A stretch of DNA of 43,968 nucleotides, taken from the IMG/VR virus record IMGVR_UViG_3300045988_181214; one strand, written 5' to 3'. The notes under the pieces were generated by a model. It saw nothing but the letters and a program-made list of their open reading frames with translations. It was not told the DNA's origin and searched no databases. How positions within the stretch are numbered: position 1 is the stretch's first letter; every line of letters starts with the position of its first letter. The stretch is from a virus (lineage: Duplodnaviria > Heunggongvirae > Uroviricota > Caudoviricetes). Below are positions 3,428 to 14,422 of this stretch, in pieces. Position numbers and translations under genes: made by a program.

Positions 3428-6400
3428 TTATTTGTTTGACTTCATTTTTTGATATTGGCTCCATTGGCGGTCGAAGCCATCGGGGCCGGTGATGACCACG
3501 TATGACTTGATGCCAGCGTTGAGCTGCTCGTTGAGTCTGTCGATGGTGGTATGCACGCTATCGAGGGATGCGCCCATCTGCTCGGTGTCGCCACCTGAGA
3601 CGTTGACCACTGGGGCGACCACGGCTGCGCTGCCTGTGCCCATGGCACGGCTCACGTCTTGGGCGGTGAGCGAGGCGACCGTGTTGTTGCGCTGCGCCAT
3701 ATCGATGAGCTGCAGGGCAGGGAGGAGCTGAGGATTGTTGACGGCGTTGTGGTTGGCGACGAACTCGCCAGCGTGAACCACGCCAGCCTCTTTCTTGTAA
3801 TTGCCAGGACCAGTGAAACCACCCTCGTAATAGCCAGCCGCCTCTGCCTGGTGCTGCTTTTTGATTGTTGCTATCTGGAGCATGCCCGCTGCGGTGGCGA
3901 GACCTGCGGCGATAGGACCAAGGATGTGACCCACCACTGGGATGGCTGCGGCTGATGAGTAGGCGTTGATGGCAGCCATGGCGGTTGAAGCTATGGCTTG
4001 TGCGATCTCTATCTTCATCGCCTTTTTGTTGGCCTTGCTCTTGGCTGCAGCCACCTCTTTGTCTCGCTTCGCCTCGAGACGCTTTTTCTTGGCTGAGTTG
4101 TTGCCAGCGGCAGAAATCTGCTTATCGTAGTTTTTCTCAATCTTGGCGACCTCTAGGTCTGAGCATGCCTGGGAGTAGGCGGAGGCAGCGCCCATCATCG
4201 TGTTGATGCTGCTGAAGGCAGCGCCAGCGATGGAGGCTATCTCTTGATAGGTCTCTTTGTTCATCTGCTTTTTGGCATCCTGGTATTGCTGCTCGCTGAT
4301 TTTATCCTCGTCTCGAAGATTTTTGAGGTTATCGTTGACCATCTTTTGCTGTTGGATGGCTGCGATGGCACCACCAGCGATTGTGGCGAGGTTGTCGCTG
4401 CCCATGGCATTGTTGCTGTCACCATTGCCCTTGGTCATCTTTTTGGCGGTGTCGAGGGCGGTGTTGGCATCCTCCTTGCGCTGCTCATCGGCGGTTGGCT
4501 TGTATGAGGCGTATTTGTTGGCGATGCCCATCTTTGTGCGCTGGTATTCCTCCTCTCTGATGAGACCTGCCTTGTAGATGGCTTCGAGTCCCTGCAGATC
4601 TAGCTGCATCTGCTCTTCGTTGCCGAGCTTGCCGTATTCTTGGCGCAGCTGAAGGAGTTGCTCGTCGTGCTGCTTCTGAAGGTCGTATTTGCGTTGCTGT
4701 TGGGTCAGCTCTCGCTCTTTCTCGATCTGGGCATACTCGTCAGATGAGGAGAGGTAGAGGGCTTGCTTTTTGTTGAGATAGTCCTGGTATGAGAGGAAGA
4801 GAGCCTCGTTGACGGCATCCTCATTGTGATAGAGGTTGGAGTCTTTGTTGTAGTAATCGGCATTGAGCTTCATTTCTTTTTTCTGTCGCTCGGTCTCCAG
4901 GGCTTCGAGGTCGGCGGTCTGCTTTTTCTCGTAGTCGGCGGCGATATTCTCTTTCTCAGCGTTCAATCGCTTGAACTCTTCGCTCTCTGCCTCGCCATAC
5001 TTTTTGAGGATGTCGAGGCGAGCCTGAAGCCCCTGTTCTTTGATATTCTTCATCTTCTCGTTGTATTCGGCGAGTCGAATCTGACCTGTAGCGTAGAGGG
5101 TCTTGGCATCGAGCTCTTCGGCTTGGTTGGCTTTCTTTGCATCGTCTAGCTCTTTTTTCATGTCAGCCTTGCGCTTAGCCTCTGCCTTGCGAGCGGCAGC
5201 CTCACGTTTCTTTTTCTCCTTTTCGGCAGCTTTGCGCTCTTTCTCGGTCATGGTATGACCAGAGGAAGGGGTGGTGTGTGTCTCTGTAGTTGCGCTATTG
5301 TTTAGTAAATTCTTCTTTACAGTCTTGTTGTACTGTTTCTGCAAATTTACGTTTTTCTCTAATTGCTGATTATAGAAATTCTCTTCAGCATTGACTTGCT
5401 TTTGCAGGCTTAGGTTTGCCTGTAGTCTTTGCGTATGAACTTGCTTTTGCTTCTCGTTACTCTTCAGTGCCTCGTTTTGTTCGATGAGCTGACCTGTCCA
5501 TCCATCAGCCACGGCATTGCTCTCATATTGCTTAGGATGAGCCTTGCGCTCAGCATCGACAGCCTTCAGCGAATATCGTATGCGGCTTTCTTTTTGTTTG
5601 AGTTCCAGTTTCTTTTTATTGATTTCCACCTTGCGCTCATAGATGGCTTCTGCCATGGCAGCATTTTCTAGCTCCTTGATGTAGTTTTGGATGGCAATCT
5701 GGTTGTCGTTATACAACTTGCCCTCTTTGGAGATAGAGGCGTGATATTCTGGGACGAGCTTTATCATATTTGCGATAGCTTGCTTTCGCTCGTCAACGGT
5801 ATAGGCATTGGAGTGGATAACCTTGTTGAGCATATCGACCTTGTTGCGCTCATCGAGGGTAGCATCAGACACCTTTTTGGCGAGGCTGGCTTGAGCCTCT
5901 GCCACTGCTCTGTTGTTTTTAGCCTCTTGCGTGTTGTTGCGCATCGCCTCGTTGTAAGATGTTATGGCTTTGTATGCCCCATAGGCAGCCACGCCCACCA
6001 CGGTGATGACTGTGGCGAGGGCAGCCCATGGATTGGTGAGACTTGCTAGGCGTGCTGCCCTCATCACCACGATGTAGCCCTGTATGCCTTTTGTGAGATA
6101 AGCCCATGTGGCTTGCAGTGCCACTAAGGCAGCACGCAAGAGTGTAGATGTAGCGGTATAAGCTTTATCGACAGCTGAAGCGTATTGTACGGCGGCTGTT
6201 TTAATCTTAATGGCGATGGTCTCCTTGTACCAGAGAGCAGTACAAACAGCGATGGCTGTTGACAGCACGGCTATTTGTTTTGCATAGGTGACGGTGAAGG
6301 TGATGAGCGTGGACATGACCTTTATGGTCAGACTGAATGATGTGATGCCATATTTCATGGCAGGGATGAGTTTTTCTCCGAGTTCGATGGTGAGGTCTTG

Positions 6401-8962: not shown

Positions 8963-9574
8963 TTATTTCACCACCTCTATGTATCTCGAGTAATCAATCT
9001 TGGAGTGGGGATTGTGGCTGACTATCTGCACCTGATAGCCCTTGGTGCCCCATCGCCACCAGAGGAACTTGTGGCGGTAGGTGCGGCTCACGATGGTCGT
9101 CAGGCTGTCTCGAGACGAGTACTGGCACTCTCGCTTGGGGATGTCGATATGGAGGGAGAGCCATTGGTCTCGGTAGGTGTAGATGGAATCGGGGATGCCG
9201 GAACCAGCCACGGCGGCGGTCGGTTCGGGCGTGAGATAGACCGTATCGGCGGTGGTTGACGAAACTGTGTGGATAGACTGCACATCTTTGAGCCGCACTT
9301 TGAGGTCTTTGATGAGCTTGGTATCGGCGAGGTGGAGCTTTTGCAGCTCGTCGTATTTCGACTGAAGGGCGTTGAATATGGCGACATTGAGAGTGTCTCT
9401 CACGTTGGCATATTCAATGTCGTAGTTGAGGTTGGCTACGTTGTAGCTCTGTCGGTCGAGGTCTGCCTGAAGCTGCTCGCACTTGTTGGCGGAGTGTATG
9501 AATGCGACTGCGGTCACGATGAGCAGGGCTGCCAGAAGCTGGATGATAATCTTGGGTGTAATCTTTTTTGTCAT
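8963..9574 (-). CDS. Membrane-anchored coiled-coil protein, possible lysis accessory (spanin-like)
   Basis: 203 aa from ATG; N-terminal signal-anchor KIIIQLLAALLIVTAVAFI then coiled-coil; directly downstream of the endolysin. Confidence 0.4.
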   Translation of the reverse strand: MTKKITPKIIIQLLAALLIVTAVAFIHSANKCEQLQADLDRQSYNVANLNYDIEYANVRDTLNVAIFNALQSKYDELQKLHLADTKLIKDLKVRLKDVQSIHTVSSTTADTVYLTPEPTAAVAGSGIPDSIYTYRDQWLSLHIDIPKRECQYSSRDSLTTIVSRTYRHKFLWWRWGTKGYQVQIVSHNPHSKIDYSRYIEVVK

Positions 9575-9603
9575 TGTCTTTTTGAAAATGATTGGTGAGT
9601 GAG

Positions 9604-10029
9604 TTATGCGATGTCTTTGTATTCGTCGATGGCATTGAAGCAAGGACACATCTTCTTCCATTTGGACTTGTCCTTGCCCCAGATGTCACGATGGCCCATT
9701 ATCTGGGCATCTGGGAATTGTTGCTTCAGTTTGTGGAGTAGCAAAACGAGGGCGTCTTTTTGCTCTGGTGTGCGGTTGTCGATAGCCTTGCCCTTAGCGT
9801 CGATGCCACCGATATAGGCGACGTTGATGGCTGTGGAGTTGTAGCCCTGCACGCCGTTGCTCACCTTTTCGATGGCTAGGAGTTGGTGGATGCCGCCGTT
9901 TGGGGCGATGACGTAGTGATAACCTGGATTGGTCCAGCCCTTGCGGCGGAACTCTGCCTTGAGGTCGTCGATGGACTGGCTTTGCGACCCTGCGGTGCAG
10001 TGAACGAAAATGCGTTTAATCTGTCTCAT
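9604..10029 (-). CDS. N-acetylmuramoyl-L-alanine amidase (endolysin)
   Basis: 141 aa from ATG; motifs IFVHCTAG, GYHYVI, NSTAINVAYIGG, HRDI...CPC typical of amidase_2/PGRP-type lysins. Confidence 0.75.
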   Translation of the reverse strand: MRQIKRIFVHCTAGSQSQSIDDLKAEFRRKGWTNPGYHYVIAPNGGIHQLLAIEKVSNGVQGYNSTAINVAYIGGIDAKGKAIDNRTPEQKDALVLLLHKLKQQFPDAQIMGHRDIWGKDKSKWKKMCPCFNAIDEYKDIA

Positions 10030-10270
10030 TATTTTGCTTGTTATGATTGAACAATTTGTTTTTGATGTTGTCGAACTTGGCATCGATGGCGATGGCTACG
10101 CCGAAGATGGAGCCGGCATACATGAGCGACTGGGCAAAGTACCAGAGCACATTGTCGGTGACATCACGAGCCTGGGAGGTGAAGTAACTGATGTAAACCA
10201 GTATGATGGCGAGGAGGAGCACGGCGATGGCTGAGCCGTATTGTATCCATTCTTTAGTATTTCTCTGCAT
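10016..10270 (-). CDS. Holin
   Basis: 84-aa protein with two hydrophobic helices and a charged C-terminus; overlaps the start of the amidase gene. Confidence 0.6.
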   Translation of the reverse strand: MQRNTKEWIQYGSAIAVLLLAIILVYISYFTSQARDVTDNVLWYFAQSLMYAGSIFGVAIAIDAKFDNIKNKLFNHNKQNNETD

Positions 10271-10320: not shown

Positions 10321-10358
10321 TAATAAAAATACGAGACCGCCCTAACGATCTCGTATTA
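10321..10358 (-). terminator. Intrinsic terminator hairpin with T-tract
   Basis: Stem ATACGAGA / TCTCGTAT with a 12-nt loop, followed on the minus strand by TTTTTATTAT; shares an identical 20-mer with 7809-7828. Confidence 0.5.
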
Positions 10359-10370
10359 TATGTTTAACTG

Positions 10371-10778
10371 TTAGACCTCTCTTGAGAGAATCTCCTTGGC
10401 TATCTCTTTGGCCTCTTTGCGCCACGACTGATAAGCCTCGAACTCTGCCTCGTGAGTCTCGTCGCCATCGCCACGGTTGGCTAGGATGGCCTCTACCTGG
10501 TTTTGGCTGTATCGGGTGCGAACCAAACCAGCGGTGAAATCGTCGTAGGTGGCTGCGGTCGCCTGAATCTTGGTCGAGCCATCAGGCTCTGTGCCCTCAT
10601 AGCTGTAAGCAGTGACACCCTCGGAGTTTTCATCTTCTGACTGCTCTGAGGTATCGGAAGAGCCTGTAGCGGCCTCAGGGTGATAGTTTTCAACTTTCTG
10701 CTCACCAGTGTAGAGCAGATAATGGTTATCGTCATATTTGACGAAGCTCTTGCGAGCTAGATAATACTTCTTGTTCAT
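10371..10778 (-). CDS. Hypothetical acidic protein co-transcribed downstream of the DGR RT
   Basis: 135-aa ORF, ATG start 7 nt after RT stop; Asp/Glu-rich; no recognisable motif. Confidence 0.5.
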   Translation of the reverse strand: MNKKYYLARKSFVKYDDNHYLLYTGEQKVENYHPEAATGSSDTSEQSEDENSEGVTAYSYEGTEPDGSTKIQATAATYDDFTAGLVRTRYSQNQVEAILANRGDGDETHEAEFEAYQSWRKEAKEIAKEILSREV

Positions 10779-10784
10779 AATTGA

Positions 10785-12359
10785 TCACGTGAATTTATAG
10801 AACTTCTTTTTGAATTTATTGTGAAGCTCTGCGACCACGGTGGAGAAGGGTAGCTCATCACGACAGAAGTCGTTGAGGGCTTGGTCTATCAAGATCTTGG
10901 AGCCTGTATAGAGGTAGTGCTCCAGAGGTTGCCATACCTCGGTGCCGTCTGGCTCCAGGTGGTCGATGATGCGATAGCGTAGGGAGAGGCGCTTCTTGGG
11001 CACCTCTTTGGTGACCATGTGGGTGGAGCCGTCCGGGGCGGTCTCCTCTTGCTGGATGGTCTCCTTCTCTATCACCGAGTCATCGACCTTGTAGTCTATC
11101 ACTTGAACGAGGAACTTGTTCTCGTCCTGACCCTCACGGCAGATGATGTCCTCGATGGACTGCTGCTGTGATTTCTCCATACCGTCAAAAGGCACGCGCG
11201 CACGGCGAGCCTTGACGAGTTTACCGAATCTTTCCATACCGATTTTCTTATATAAGTTTTTAGAGTTTGCGTGGATGCCCAGACCTAGGCGAGAGGCTGC
11301 CTTGAGCTGTATCTGGCGGTCTGTGAAGCCCGCCTTGCGTAAGTTGGCGATCTGTCTGCAGAGGTCGTGCTTGAACCGCTTGCGCAACAGGGCGTGGTCG
11401 GCGTAGATGATCTGACCGCATAAGTCGATGCCATCGCAGGTGCGGTGGATACCCCAAGACTTATTGATGGATAGGTGCCAGTCACGGGCGAGGTGCATCA
11501 CGGCAAGCTCTGCCATCAGCCTGAGGAACACCTTATCCTCGTGGAGGATGTAGATGTTGTCCATGAAGCGGTAATAATGGCGAAGACCTTGGCGGCAGAA
11601 GCGCTCGAACCTATCGTTGAGCGACTTCACTCCCCCGCATAGCAGTTGAGCTTGCTGCTGAGTGCGACAGGTAACGAGCATGTCGCTCACGTAGCGAGCC
11701 TGCCAGTAACGGAACTTGTCGGTGTCTTGGAGAATGTCGAAGCATCGGAGTGCCAGGTAATCGAAGCGGGCGAGGAAGAGCTGACCCAAGAGTTGGGCGA
11801 GCTTGACGCCGAGCACGATGCCTGGATTGAAGCTATCGACCACCTCGTCGATGAAGGCGAGGAGCTTGCGGTCTTTGATCTTGCGGCGATATTCACTTTT
11901 GAGAAGAGCGTGGTCTATGCTCTGAAAATAATGGTGAATATCCATGGGCAAGCAGTAGAAGGTATCTTGCTGTGGCGAGTTGAAGATGTCTCGCTTGACA
12001 AGATTATAGAAATAATGGGTGCCCTTGCCCTTGGAACCAGCCGGACTGTGGCTGTAGAGTGTCTTGCGAAGGTTATCCTCTACAGGTTGCAGGGCAGCGT
12101 GCTGGATGACGTGGTCGATAACGGGCAGCTTGTTGACTTGGCGATGTTTTGGATAGTCGATATCTTTGGCGACATAGGCTGAGGTATGCCAAGTTTGTTG
12201 GGTGTAAGCATCGAGCATGCGTCCGATGTTATGGTCTAGGTTTGCCTCGAATTTTTGGACCGCACGGCGAGACATCTTTTGTCGGGCGTAGTCATAGAAT
12301 GCCCGACGAAAGTTGTCTAGTGTCTCGACCTGTAGCGATATGTTGCCAAACCTTTTCAT
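10785..12359 (-). CDS. Reverse transcriptase (DGR-type), catalytic motif non-canonical
   Basis: 524 aa from first ATG (track ORF starts at GTG 12428); RT motif 2 SPAGSKGKGTHY, motif A LPMDIHHYFQSIDH, motif B-like GIVLGVKLAQLLGQLFLARFD; sits 208 bp downstream of the template repeat. Confidence 0.8.
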   Translation of the reverse strand: MKRFGNISLQVETLDNFRRAFYDYARQKMSRRAVQKFEANLDHNIGRMLDAYTQQTWHTSAYVAKDIDYPKHRQVNKLPVIDHVIQHAALQPVEDNLRKTLYSHSPAGSKGKGTHYFYNLVKRDIFNSPQQDTFYCLPMDIHHYFQSIDHALLKSEYRRKIKDRKLLAFIDEVVDSFNPGIVLGVKLAQLLGQLFLARFDYLALRCFDILQDTDKFRYWQARYVSDMLVTCRTQQQAQLLCGGVKSLNDRFERFCRQGLRHYYRFMDNIYILHEDKVFLRLMAELAVMHLARDWHLSINKSWGIHRTCDGIDLCGQIIYADHALLRKRFKHDLCRQIANLRKAGFTDRQIQLKAASRLGLGIHANSKNLYKKIGMERFGKLVKARRARVPFDGMEKSQQQSIEDIICREGQDENKFLVQVIDYKVDDSVIEKETIQQEETAPDGSTHMVTKEVPKKRLSLRYRIIDHLEPDGTEVWQPLEHYLYTGSKILIDQALNDFCRDELPFSTVVAELHNKFKKKFYKFT

Positions 12360-12567
12360 AAGCGGTGTAATGTCTGTGTTGAACGGTGTATAAACTGTGT
12401 ATAGTCTGAATCGTCTGCTTTTGTACACTTGATAACCTTCGACCGGATGACCGTGTTGTCATCATCTACCAGCTGTCTTATTAATGTGTATGTATCGCCA
12501 TGGGGCGAGGATTGACCCTGTAATCTCGAAGTGGGAGCAAACGACCCACGAAGAGATATGTCTGTAA

Positions 12568-12689
12568 GTTGAGGGCGGCGCCGTAGTTCACATTGGCATT
12601 CGAGACAGCATTGTTCACGTTGAGCGTTGAAAGACCGCATTGACCACCATTGTTAGCGTTAGCACCACGAAGGCAGACACGAAAACCGG
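12568..12689 (-). repeat. DGR template repeat (TR), noncoding
   Basis: 122 bp matching 12979-13100 at constant offset 411 with no indels; 9 mismatches, all at T on the plus strand (A on the transcribed strand); Asn (AAC)-rich in the target frame. Confidence 0.85.
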
Positions 12690-12723
12690 CACCTAGGGTC
12701 ACACCCTGGTATCATAACCGCCG

Positions 12724-12731
12724 CAAAGGTA
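12724..12731 (-). promoter_or_regulatory. -7 promoter element (TAccTTTG) upstream of TR-RT
   Basis: Minus-strand ATTTTTATTACCTTTGCGG ~35 nt upstream of the TR. Confidence 0.45.
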
Positions 12732-12927
12732 ATAAAAATAATCGGTATGGAAGCATGTCAAAGAGCTTTTTTGATGTTTTTATTGATATTTTTTTTGTCG
12801 CCGACCGCCACAGGCGGTAACTTAAGGCGAGCTACGCTCGCTGGGTGCTTCGGCTTCGCCGAGGGTGCTCAGGTCTCTTTTGCACACCCAGTAAACCGAT
12901 GCACACCCAGCAAACTGATGTAGTCTC

Positions 12928-14400
12928 TTAGGCCGCCTCGTAATACACGGGTTCAACGGACCACTCGGATGCTGCTTCGCAGAGGGCGGCGCCGCAGTTC
13001 ACATAGGCATTCGAGACAGCATTGTTCACGTCGAGCGTAGAAAGACCGCATTGACCACCATCGTAAGCGCTAGCACCACGAAGGCAGACACGAAAACCGG
13101 ATGTAGCACCAGACGTATTCCAGAAATAGCTAGTCCAGTAGGTTGACTCGGATGCGCCCGTAGCGGTCGGGAAGTTCTCTAGATGCTCCATCGAGAGCGT
13201 CTTGATATAGCCTTCGCCCTTGGTCGGCGAGGTGCTGTAAGCCACCATGCCATCGGTGGAACCTATCGTCCACGTGCCGTAGATGGACGGTGCCACGAGA
13301 TGGGTCACGGAAGTGTCCTCGTTGCAACGCACCTGCTCGTCATCCATGTGTCGCCACAATAAGCCGAAGCCATTTTTGTAGCCGAAGAAGGATGGTATCT
13401 TGGCGGTATAGACCACGGTGCCATCGTCTTTTTTGACCTCGTAGCTCGCCTCGCCGCAAGCGTCGCCAAGCTCGATGCCAGCCGACATCGGCACGACAGG
13501 GCGATAGCCGTTGTAACCACCCCAATCAGGCATCTGTGTCACGCCAGCGCCGAGACCACCCTGGTAGAGACCGTTGGCATCTTTTTGGCTGTTGACGGCA
13601 TCCTGGTCGTAGTGGGTGCCGAAGATGACCCCGAAGAGCACGGAGATGGCAGAGGTGTGGCGCATGGTGGTGCAGAGCCAGCCTGTGCCGTTTTTGCGGG
13701 CAGCAGCACGCCAGTATTCGGTAGTCTGGTTGGTGGCAGCCTTGCCCAGCATGGTGCGGTTGGTGTTATCTAACGTGGAGTCGTTGTTGCCGCCTCGGTA
13801 GTTTGTGCCCTCGTTGATGTAGCTCACCAGCTTGCCTGTGCTGCGCTCTAGCGTGGCGAAGCCAGCGGCGGAGATGCTGCCCACAGGTATCTTGTAATTG
13901 TACTCGCCTGGTATCGGCGTAGGGCTGACCATCTCGTAATGGAGTCTGCCCACGGTCTTGATGACCATGTACCACTCCTTGCCCCAGCCCCACTGGTAGT
14001 GCCCCTCTGAGCCATCGAGCTTGGCTGTCTCGCCGGTGGCATACTTGTGGTGGTCTTTGGAGTCGAGCTTGCGACGGGAGTGGTCATTCTTGACCAGATA
14101 ACAGCCCAGACCCAGCTCCGTTGGTAGGGTCTGCAGTAACTCTAGCGAGCCCACATAAGTGGCGGCTTTAGGGGTTGCATTGTCGAGGTTCCACACTCGA
14201 CCACACCAAGGATGCTGTCCCATTTGGACGGCGCTTTTGAGCGACATCTGCTCAGACCTGCCGGATTTTTTGTCGAAGACCTCGACAATCTTGTCAGTGG
14301 CGCTCATGTCTGACTGTGGGAGGTCGTCAACCTGTTGACCTCCATCGAAAGCGGCTATGATAGCCTTGAGCTTACTCTCTTCTTCTGATGTTAATGCCAT
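12928..14400 (-). CDS. DGR target protein: tail-fibre / receptor-binding protein with C-terminal variable region
   Basis: 490 aa from ATG (track ORF extends to 14448); VR occupies the last ~40 codons; lies within the tail-fibre gene block. Confidence 0.75.
   Translation of the reverse strand: MALTSEEESKLKAIIAAFDGGQQVDDLPQSDMSATDKIVEVFDKKSGRSEQMSLKSAVQMGQHPWCGRVWNLDNATPKAATYVGSLELLQTLPTELGLGCYLVKNDHSRRKLDSKDHHKYATGETAKLDGSEGHYQWGWGKEWYMVIKTVGRLHYEMVSPTPIPGEYNYKIPVGSISAAGFATLERSTGKLVSYINEGTNYRGGNNDSTLDNTNRTMLGKAATNQTTEYWRAAARKNGTGWLCTTMRHTSAISVLFGVIFGTHYDQDAVNSQKDANGLYQGGLGAGVTQMPDWGGYNGYRPVVPMSAGIELGDACGEASYEVKKDDGTVVYTAKIPSFFGYKNGFGLLWRHMDDEQVRCNEDTSVTHLVAPSIYGTWTIGSTDGMVAYSTSPTKGEGYIKTLSMEHLENFPTATGASESTYWTSYFWNTSGATSGFRVCLRGASAYDGGQCGLSTLDVNNAVSNAYVNCGAALCEAASEWSVEPVYYEAA
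12979..13100 (-). repeat. DGR variable repeat (VR) at the 3' end of the target gene
   Basis: Encodes the C-terminal ...GFRVCLRGASAYDGGQCGLSTLDVNNAVSNAYVNCGAALC of the target; matches the TR except at template-adenine positions; GC-rich 3' end GCGGCGCCGCCC (IMH-like). Confidence 0.85.
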
Positions 14401-14422
14401 AATAAAAATTATATTTAATCGA

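Follow-up and report, generated by a model that had tools for sequence, protein, structure and literature searches.

A viral sequence of 43,968 nucleotides (Caudoviricetes; IMG/VR virus record IMGVR_UViG_3300045988_181214), referred to here as the window, carries a diversity-generating retroelement (DGR), and we looked at the spacer that separates the diversified gene of this element from its template. Coordinates are those of the whole window, and all genes and features of the DGR lie on its minus strand in the order target gene with its variable repeat (VR), template repeat (TR) and reverse transcriptase (RT) (Table 1). The locus combines an adenine-specific TR/VR pair, an adjacent RT of the DGR type and a VR at the 3′ end of the target gene. 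VR and TR differ at 7 positions, every one of them a TR adenine, and have in common a GC-rich end, GGCGCCGCCCTC, which resembles an initiation of mutagenic homing (IMH) site and beyond which the two sequences diverge. From the end of the VR it is 52 nt to the stop codon of the target (TAA, 12930..12928), and the window contains no second VR. The target protein has no match in Pfam and only phrog_5302, 'tail protein', in PHROG; a homologous target is present in all full-length relatives and was found wherever one was looked for (at L080, L081 and eleven genome loci; L numbers are our handles for related loci).

Six phage contigs that are 99.8-99.97% identical upstream have 23 variable columns in the VR, 21 of which fall on TR adenines, and show that the DGR is active in nature and that its diversification is A-specific. 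The prototype DGR of Bordetella phage BPP-1 likewise has adenine-specific transfer from the TR to a VR in the 3′ end of the gene for a tail protein, and a GC-rich end common to both repeats; from its arrangement (mtd-avd-TR-brt) the window differs in having no Avd and in carrying a 237-nt non-coding region in the place of avd. At position 12629 of the TR the window has A where five sister phages have G (TTTCAACGC vs TTTCGACGC), with T at VR position 13039, which is consistent with a newly made mutable site that has already been used.

Table 1 Genes, repeats and RNA or DNA elements of the DGR locus, in the order in which they are read
Feature	Coordinates	Strand	Evidence and remarks
DGR target gene (tail protein, 491 aa)	12928..14403	-	phrog_5302 tail protein, 3.8e-58; VR near 3′ end
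Variable repeat (VR)	12983..13100	-	Gapless alignment to TR
Direct repeat CTGGGTGTGCA, two 11-nt copies	12910..12900 and 12891..12881	-	An 11-nt repeat occurs in 0.65% of shuffles
Two AGCACCC motifs flanking hairpin 1	12843..12869	-	Second AGCACCC invariant, 53/53 relatives
Hairpin 1, TCGGC-gaa-GCCGA (5 bp, 3-nt loop)	12862..12850	-	77% paired; 3 pairs with compensatory changes
Hairpin 2, GCGAGC-gta-GCTCGC	12841..12827	-	88.7% paired (53 sequences); 3 pairs with compensatory changes
Hairpin 3, ACCGCC-tgt-GGCGGT	12818..12804	-	99.7% paired, almost invariant; followed by CGGCGAC and A8
Box GCTCTTTGACAT, preceded by an A-rich stretch	12755..12766	-	Almost invariant in 53 relatives; unique in window
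Bacteroidetes-type -7 promoter element (predicted) TACCTTTG	12724..12731	-	34 nt before TR; TAnCTTTG invariant, 53/53
Hairpin AGGGT-gtg-ACCCT (5 bp, 3-nt loop)	12707..12695	-	Perfect stem
TR-closing helix, 5′ arm AGGGTGTGACCCT	12695..12707	-	RNAalifold; in leader of DGR RNA
Template repeat (TR), 118 nt, 23 adenines	12573..12690	-	Gapless alignment to VR
TR-closing helix, 3′ arm AGGGTCAATCCT	12508..12519	-	RNAalifold; in TR-RT spacer, overlapping 5′ end of RT-17 match
Rfam RT-17 (RF03020)	12411..12512	-	59.9 bits vs gathering score of 40.4; outside interval of first-pass annotation
DGR RT (525 aa)	10785..12362	-	phrog_1423, 6e-52; motif C F-M-D-N; C-terminal extension of ~150 aa
ORF135 (135 aa, isoelectric point 4.63)	10371..10778	-	Starts 6 nt after RT stop
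Intrinsic-terminator-like hairpin at end of TR-RT-ORF135 unit	10328..10357	-	13-pair stem, then TTTATTAT

For comparison we retrieved 79 related viral contigs with RT identities of 59-100%, and the spacer alignment used throughout comprises 53 distinct spacers. About 70 of the 79 contigs have the same layout, with typically 169-263 nt between target stop and TR (outliers 22 and 124 nt), and in seven genome relatives with RT identities of 26-66% the distance from VR to TR is 197-332 nt. Among genomic sequences the RT is closest to those in contigs of Phocaeicola sp. (66%), Segatella copri MSK.21.95 (60%) and Muribaculaceae (47%) (L085, L086 and L087), and the motif TAnnTTTG is enriched across the window, with 52 matches vs 19 expected; on these two grounds we assign the window to a Bacteroidales phage or prophage. 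Among phage genome records there was a single close match, MT835875.1, which is unannotated and ends within the spacer.

An earlier reading of the window from its sequence, the first-pass annotation, had described a DGR without an avd gene and without an open reading frame (ORF) between target stop and TR, and both statements were borne out. A Pfam scan with bAvd (PF22296) and PF05635 matched none of the 145 window ORFs of 70-260 aa, nor did it match any of the 43 ORFs that surround the RT at 11 related genome loci; run as a positive control on 129 ORFs in the neighbourhood of conventional short DGR RTs, it recovered Avd in 7. The spacer holds no Avd-sized ORF and no conserved one, Avd-like or other: there are no ORFs of at least 60 aa in it, and of three ORFs of 44-58 aa that overlap it none is kept in relatives. 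We considered and rejected a basic 56-aa antisense ORF (12650..12820, plus strand) as a short avd-like gene in another frame. It overlaps the TR, its conserved N-terminus only mirrors the conservation of the TR, and because its length varies from 0 to 97 aa among relatives we regard it as no gene. In the roughly 70 related contigs of the same layout the gap between stop and TR is too short to have held avd, and since relatives free of Avd have the same short spacer the missing avd is a trait of the lineage. One window ORF in the 70-260 aa range gave a weak match to Pfam Cytochrom_B562, a four-helix bundle, in the pooled scan (E 0.0062).

The missing avd is real but the kind of element is already known. 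According to the survey by Wu et al. (2018, PMC5758913), avd occurs in only 74% of DGRs and is missing from 26%, an accessory-free architecture makes up 29% of DGRs, and RT lineage 3 is without avd, its branch 3A being confined to Bacteroides and relatives. The window resembles these Avd-less DGRs (Architecture A1, target-TR-RT; lineage 3/3A) in having no avd, in its gene order and in its Bacteroidales hosts, as indicated by its relatives in Segatella copri, Phocaeicola and Muribaculaceae.

The spacer had been described as a structured 238-bp region between VR and TR. That length is the distance from the target stop to the TR (237 nt), the distance from the end of the VR to the start of the TR being 292 nt. 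The two perfect 6-bp hairpins reported in it (hairpins 2 and 3 in Table 1) and the 11-nt direct repeat were confirmed at their places, and the two 5-bp hairpins of Table 1 are additional to them. At least two perfect 6-bp hairpins with loops of 3-5 nt were found in 3.4% of 2000 dinucleotide shuffles of 240 nt (for the repeat see Table 1), and the spacer has a folding z-score of -3.5 as RNA and -3.15 as DNA. An Rfam search over the locus at E values up to 10 returned no family in the spacer and only RT-17, which lies outside it, and a spurious CRISPR-DR9.

Hairpins 2 and 3 are largely kept in relatives. The compensatory changes in hairpin 2 include arm swaps in the L039 and L040 clades and the pair GCGTGC/GCACGC in L085, and in 18 of the 53 sequences the stem is broken at its two central pairs. 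A model made up of the small hairpins obtained a covariation score of 0.131, vs 0.060 for shuffles and at most 0.090 for slid controls. A long hairpin of 100 nt predicted by minimum free energy (MFE) folding was rejected as a conserved structure, with 72.1% pairing in the 53 relatives vs 72.1% in column shuffles and a covariation score of 0.058 vs 0.057. Copy number of the direct repeat in relatives is two, one (L023, L037) or none (L039-L048 clade).

It could be argued from such variation that the spacer is functionless beyond a promoter, a leader and one terminator-type hairpin (see below), its repeats and hairpins 1 and 2 being products of slippage or remnants of rearranged terminators in close kin. 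The fluctuating repeat number, with a 20-nt unit cleanly deleted in L023 and L037, would fit this, as would the fact that hairpin 1 is unrecognisable in the L039 and L040 clades, the broken hairpin 2 and the frequency with which two 6-bp hairpins occur in shuffles; kinship alone can moreover lift sequences above column shuffles without any structure. We nevertheless hold this to be improbable, as AGCACCC is invariant across clades with diverged flanks, the pairing of hairpin 2 survives full arm swaps or compensation in three clades and the small-hairpin score lies above both kinds of control.

The first-pass annotation had likened the hairpins to the structures that promote retrohoming in other DGRs, and this comparison was not supported. 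In DGR targets the retrohoming hairpin or cruciform, a GC stem of 7-10 bp with a GRNA loop of 4 nt, is located 4-34 bp past the VR, and in BPP-1 its distance from the VR matters (PMC3240598). Hairpins 2 and 3 have stems of 6 bp and 3-nt loops (GTA and TGT) and lie 142 and 165 nt past the VR, and they therefore depart from the VR-proximal cruciform (Guo et al. 2011) in stem, loop and distance alike, having in common with it that GC-rich inverted repeats follow the VR but not the TR. Under a cruciform explanation the GC hairpins, perhaps with the direct repeats, would form a DNA hairpin or cruciform that marks the target for integration of the cDNA and compensates for the missing Avd. The hairpins are real and rarer than expected by chance, hairpin 3 is almost invariant, hairpin 2 carries compensatory changes and elements of this type do aid retrohoming in BPP-1. 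However, the 18 relatives with a broken hairpin 2 keep VR/TR mismatches almost all at TR adenines, L085 has A-specific mismatches without any hairpin 3, a hairpin in this place carries a terminator-like T-run in sister clades and high-confidence inverted repeats after the IMH are found in only 34% of DGRs. Together with the mismatched geometry this makes a cruciform role very unlikely. A short inverted repeat abutting the VR itself (CTGC-gaa-GCAG, 12982..12972) was also tried as a cruciform and rejected, as its stem has only 4 bp, it lies within coding sequence and distant relatives have not preserved it.

A different function is suggested by the sister clades. There the counterpart of hairpin 3 is followed by CGA and a T-run (T7-8 in the 60% clade, T5 in L089), and in L036 and L089 hairpin and T-run together score as an intrinsic terminator. 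The conservation of hairpins 2 and 3 is better explained by a terminator or 3′-end function. In the clade of the window an A-run replaces the T-run after hairpin 3 and termination is therefore probably weak. More distant relatives have a three-part element GGCGG / CCGCC / GGCGG followed by a T-rich stretch (L088 ~5585-5625, L089 ~5575-5620, L090 ~5590-5640, L092 ~2545-2600 and L098 ~5610-5665), attenuator-like in that CCGCC can pair with either neighbour; in L089, L090 and L092 the T-rich stretch contains an unambiguous run of 5-7 T.

The most conserved part of the 53-spacer alignment is the AT-rich 3′ half. The predicted -7 element in it conforms to the Bacteroides -7 promoter consensus TAnnTTTG (PMC4747536), and a TAnnTTTG is found 34-48 nt before the TR in 7 of 8 distant relatives, down to 26% RT identity. 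The box upstream of it, in the form (A-rich)-GYTCTTTGAMAT, is likewise kept to 26% RT identity among relatives at 26-33%, with one or two substitutions in L092 and L098. Its place varies (L088, L089, L090, L092, L094, L098), with 27-45 nt separating it from the downstream -7 element in some lineages. The locus resembles a Rho-independent terminator followed by a Bacteroides sigma-type promoter in that an operon ends in a GC hairpin, behind which come an AT-rich region and an invariant TACCTTTG whose spacing to the next transcription unit is fixed.

Downstream of the predicted promoter the spacer ends in what would be the leader of the DGR RNA. We aligned leader, TR and TR-RT spacer of 31 sequences and folded them with RNAalifold, which yielded a helix of 12 bp that encloses the TR and joins the leader to the TR-RT spacer. 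It is 98.4% paired across the 31 sequences and three of its pairs show compensatory changes. Its 3′ arm runs into the match to RT-17, an RNA family that 10 of 12 relatives (L006, L036, L039, L080, L082, L085, L086, L089, L090 and L094), with RT identities down to 26-30%, likewise carry ahead of the RT. In BPP-1 cDNA synthesis depends on the 20 nt that precede the TR and on almost all of the spacer (PMC6182149), and the TR-brt spacer is filled by RT-10 (PMC5737381). RT-17 occupies the same place between TR and RT in the window and in those 10 relatives and is thus the counterpart in this lineage of RT-10, from which it differs in Rfam family. Weinberg et al. (2017) only speculated that further RT motifs act in DGRs and showed no DGR role for RT-17, and the Rfam model of RT-17 does not include the covarying helix between its 5′ edge and the TR leader. 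The structured DGR RNA therefore lies mainly downstream of the TR, and only the last ~25 nt of the spacer as originally delimited take part in it.

Taken together, we consider it probable, though by no means certain, that the spacer consists of the terminator-type 3′ end of one transcript and the promoter and 5′ leader of the next in an Avd-less DGR of a Bacteroidales phage, and that it is an ordinary conserved intergenic region, neither a substitute for avd nor a cruciform target signal. The observation made in the first-pass annotation is confirmed and its interpretation partly supported. The first part, from 12927 to 12800 and GC-rich (59% G+C), would be the 3′ untranslated end of the tail-gene transcript with the direct repeats, the AGCACCC motifs and the three GC hairpins. 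Hairpin 3 would be the counterpart of the intrinsic terminator that in sister clades appears to end the tail-gene transcript; in the clade of the window, where little termination is predicted, the hairpins may mainly protect the 3′ end of the transcript. The second part, from 12799 to 12717 and AT-rich (the 3′ half of the spacer has 36% G+C), would be the promoter of the TR-RT-ORF135 unit, with the box GCTCTTTGACAT and the -7 element TACCTTTG and a predicted start ~25 nt before the TR. The third, from 12716 to 12691, would be the 5′ leader of the DGR RNA, in which AGGGTGTGACCCT is predicted to pair with AGGGTCAATCCT ~55 nt past the TR, and the closing helix so formed would loop out the TR directly beside the RT-17 structure. 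The divergent RT with its C-terminal extension would then copy the TR with adenine mutagenesis and the copy would replace the VR. The layout of the locus, its conservation, the covarying closing helix, the missing Avd and the natural A-specific diversification are observed directly; the activity and start site of the promoter, the role of the 3′ end and the protein partners of the RT are inferred.

Several points weigh against this division of the spacer. No terminator-like site was scored in the spacer of the window itself, in which hairpin 3, unlike a Rho-independent terminator, has no T-run. Bacteroides promoters usually have a spacing of ~19-21 nt between their two elements. Here 27 nt rather than ~20 separate the candidate TTTG in the box from the -7 element, and in four distant relatives the box is 110-130 nt upstream of the -7 element with terminator hairpins in between; on account of this spacing and of the shifted place the box is not simply a -33 element. 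Both the start site and the 3′ ends are predictions from sequence, and the invariant AGCACCC and the covariation of hairpins 1 and 2 exceed what a bare terminator needs.

Alternatively, the GC-rich half could be a regulatory RNA element, either an attenuator or a processing site, whose alternative pairings would set the read-through from the late tail operon into TR-RT and so couple diversification to late expression. Candidate pairings are those between the CTGGGTG repeats and AGCACCC or between AGCACCC and the GGGTGTG of the TR leader, and in distant relatives those within GGCGG / CCGCC / GGCGG before the T-run. The spacer has GGGTGTG three times (12908..12902, 12889..12883 and 12706..12700) and AGCACCC twice, RNAalifold predicts pairing between the leader's GGTGT and the invariant GCACC, pairing in helix 2 of the long hairpin reaches 86.6%, overlapping alternative hairpins precede a T-run in L088, L089, L090, L092 and L098, and the clade of the window has lost the T-run. 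The long-hairpin model, however, does not outperform column shuffles, the GCACC/GGTGT pairing is without variation and hence provides no test by covariation, the repeats are missing in the L039-L048 clade, and an independent invariant promoter is predicted downstream, all of which leads us to regard such regulation as unlikely.

Quite unlikely, in our view, is a more far-reaching idea in which AGCACCC, hairpins 2 and 3 and the DGR-specific box GYTCTTTGAMA are cis sites of an Avd-independent retrohoming machinery, made up of an xDN RT with a beta-rich C-terminal domain, the RT-17 RNA with its closing helix and possibly ORF135; such sites would either act as remote marks of the target or control the read-through into TR-RT. 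Were it true the spacer would be required for diversification, over and above a role as terminator and promoter.

The RT belongs to the DGR type by fold but is divergent in sequence. Its best fold match in the PDB is the BPP-1 DGR RT (8UB7, E 1.3e-15, TM score 0.76 on the target), from which it differs in its size of 525 aa, in an insertion of ~50 aa between motifs 4 and 5, in a C-terminal domain that is beta-rich in the structure model (pLDDT 86.5) and in an xDN motif C instead of YMDD. It has no Pfam match, RVT_1 included, and most of its homologues likewise lack an RVT_1 match; over residues 1-375 it is at most 29% identical to RTs of annotated phage genome records. Motif C, at about residues 266-269, reads F-M-D-N rather than the usual Y-x-D-D, and 34 of 35 diverse homologues (37-100% identity) have R-F-[MAV]-D-N there. 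Motif 4 is LGVKLAQ, with LG[VI]K[LI][AS]Q in the family vs IGNxxSQ. Despite the xDN motif C the VRs of near-identical phages have been diversified at TR adenines. Like the window RT, ~20% of DGR RTs have a C-terminal extension (Wu et al. 2018); a conserved F-x-D-N motif C was not found in that paper, within the passages searched.

As to proteins that may act with this RT, the small ORF downstream of it, here called ORF135, had been set aside in the first-pass annotation as acidic, located after the RT and unlike Avd. Its acidity, its position and the lack of an Avd match stand, but its dismissal is unsupported, as the ORF follows the RT in relatives, namely in 78 of the 79 viral loci and in 13 genome loci. 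Of the RTs at these 13 loci 12 have the C-terminal extension, the match of the L098 RT ending at residue 385. A profile search collected 548 representative proteins; in many of them the similarity is confined to the C-terminal helical half, which has the motif LVSALIRxRYSxDxVEAIxxN...EHExE..QxWRxEAK; the family consists of small acidic phage proteins, with full-length members of 120-142 aa. No named homologue of ORF135 was found, cluster look-ups included, and its fold has no solved relative.

Among distant members of the family some have an RT directly upstream (L082, L084, L168, L170, L174, L175) and others have no RT and a large upstream gene (L165, L167, L171, L173), which is tail-fibre-like by PHROG in L167, the one of these four loci searched for it; one distant context is a crAss-like contig. 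In L168, L170 and L175 the acidic ORF135-like gene coexists with a basic ORF of 161-169 aa. ORF135 as a strict replacement of Avd was therefore given up, being weakened both by RT-free contexts after large genes and by this coexistence. The basic ORFs themselves (L168 2080-2562, L170 1574-2068, L175 1610-2116; isoelectric point 9.1-9.7) belong to a different DGR lineage, in which they are encoded between target and RT, and have no Pfam Avd match; they may be a divergent Avd.

A precedent for an acidic neighbour of the RT exists in CH1, described by Wu et al. (2018, PMC5758913) from Avd-less Bacteroides DGRs as a small acidic gene (isoelectric point 4.7 +/- 0.2, 160-169 aa) found only in avd-less DGRs. 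Judged by that description (Architecture E) ORF135 is like CH1 in being small and acidic and in flanking the RT of an avd-less DGR, and differs from it in length (135 aa vs 160-169 aa). As the contexts of ORF135 are mixed, it could be a DGR accessory like CH1 or a tail-fibre-associated gene that normally follows a receptor-binding gene, and we regard the two as about equally likely.

As first stated the finding adds little, since Avd-less DGRs, some of them with acidic flanking genes, were catalogued in 2018. The interest of the locus lies in its being a clean and naturally active Avd-independent DGR, carried by Segatella and Phocaeicola phages that are abundant in the human gut. The locus links the orphan Rfam motif RT-17 to a DGR, has a covarying helix enclosing the TR, and shows that an RT clade diversifies VRs although its YxDD box reads xDN. 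The compact cassette of predicted promoter, leader, TR, RT-17, RT and ORF135 would be a convenient system for studying how DGRs work without Avd.

The genes that come after ORF135 differ from locus to locus and include lysis genes, tape measure or portal. In the window the DGR unit is followed by a lysis-type cassette on the same strand, with an Amidase_2 protein at 9604..10083 and a DUF6549 protein at 8963..9661.

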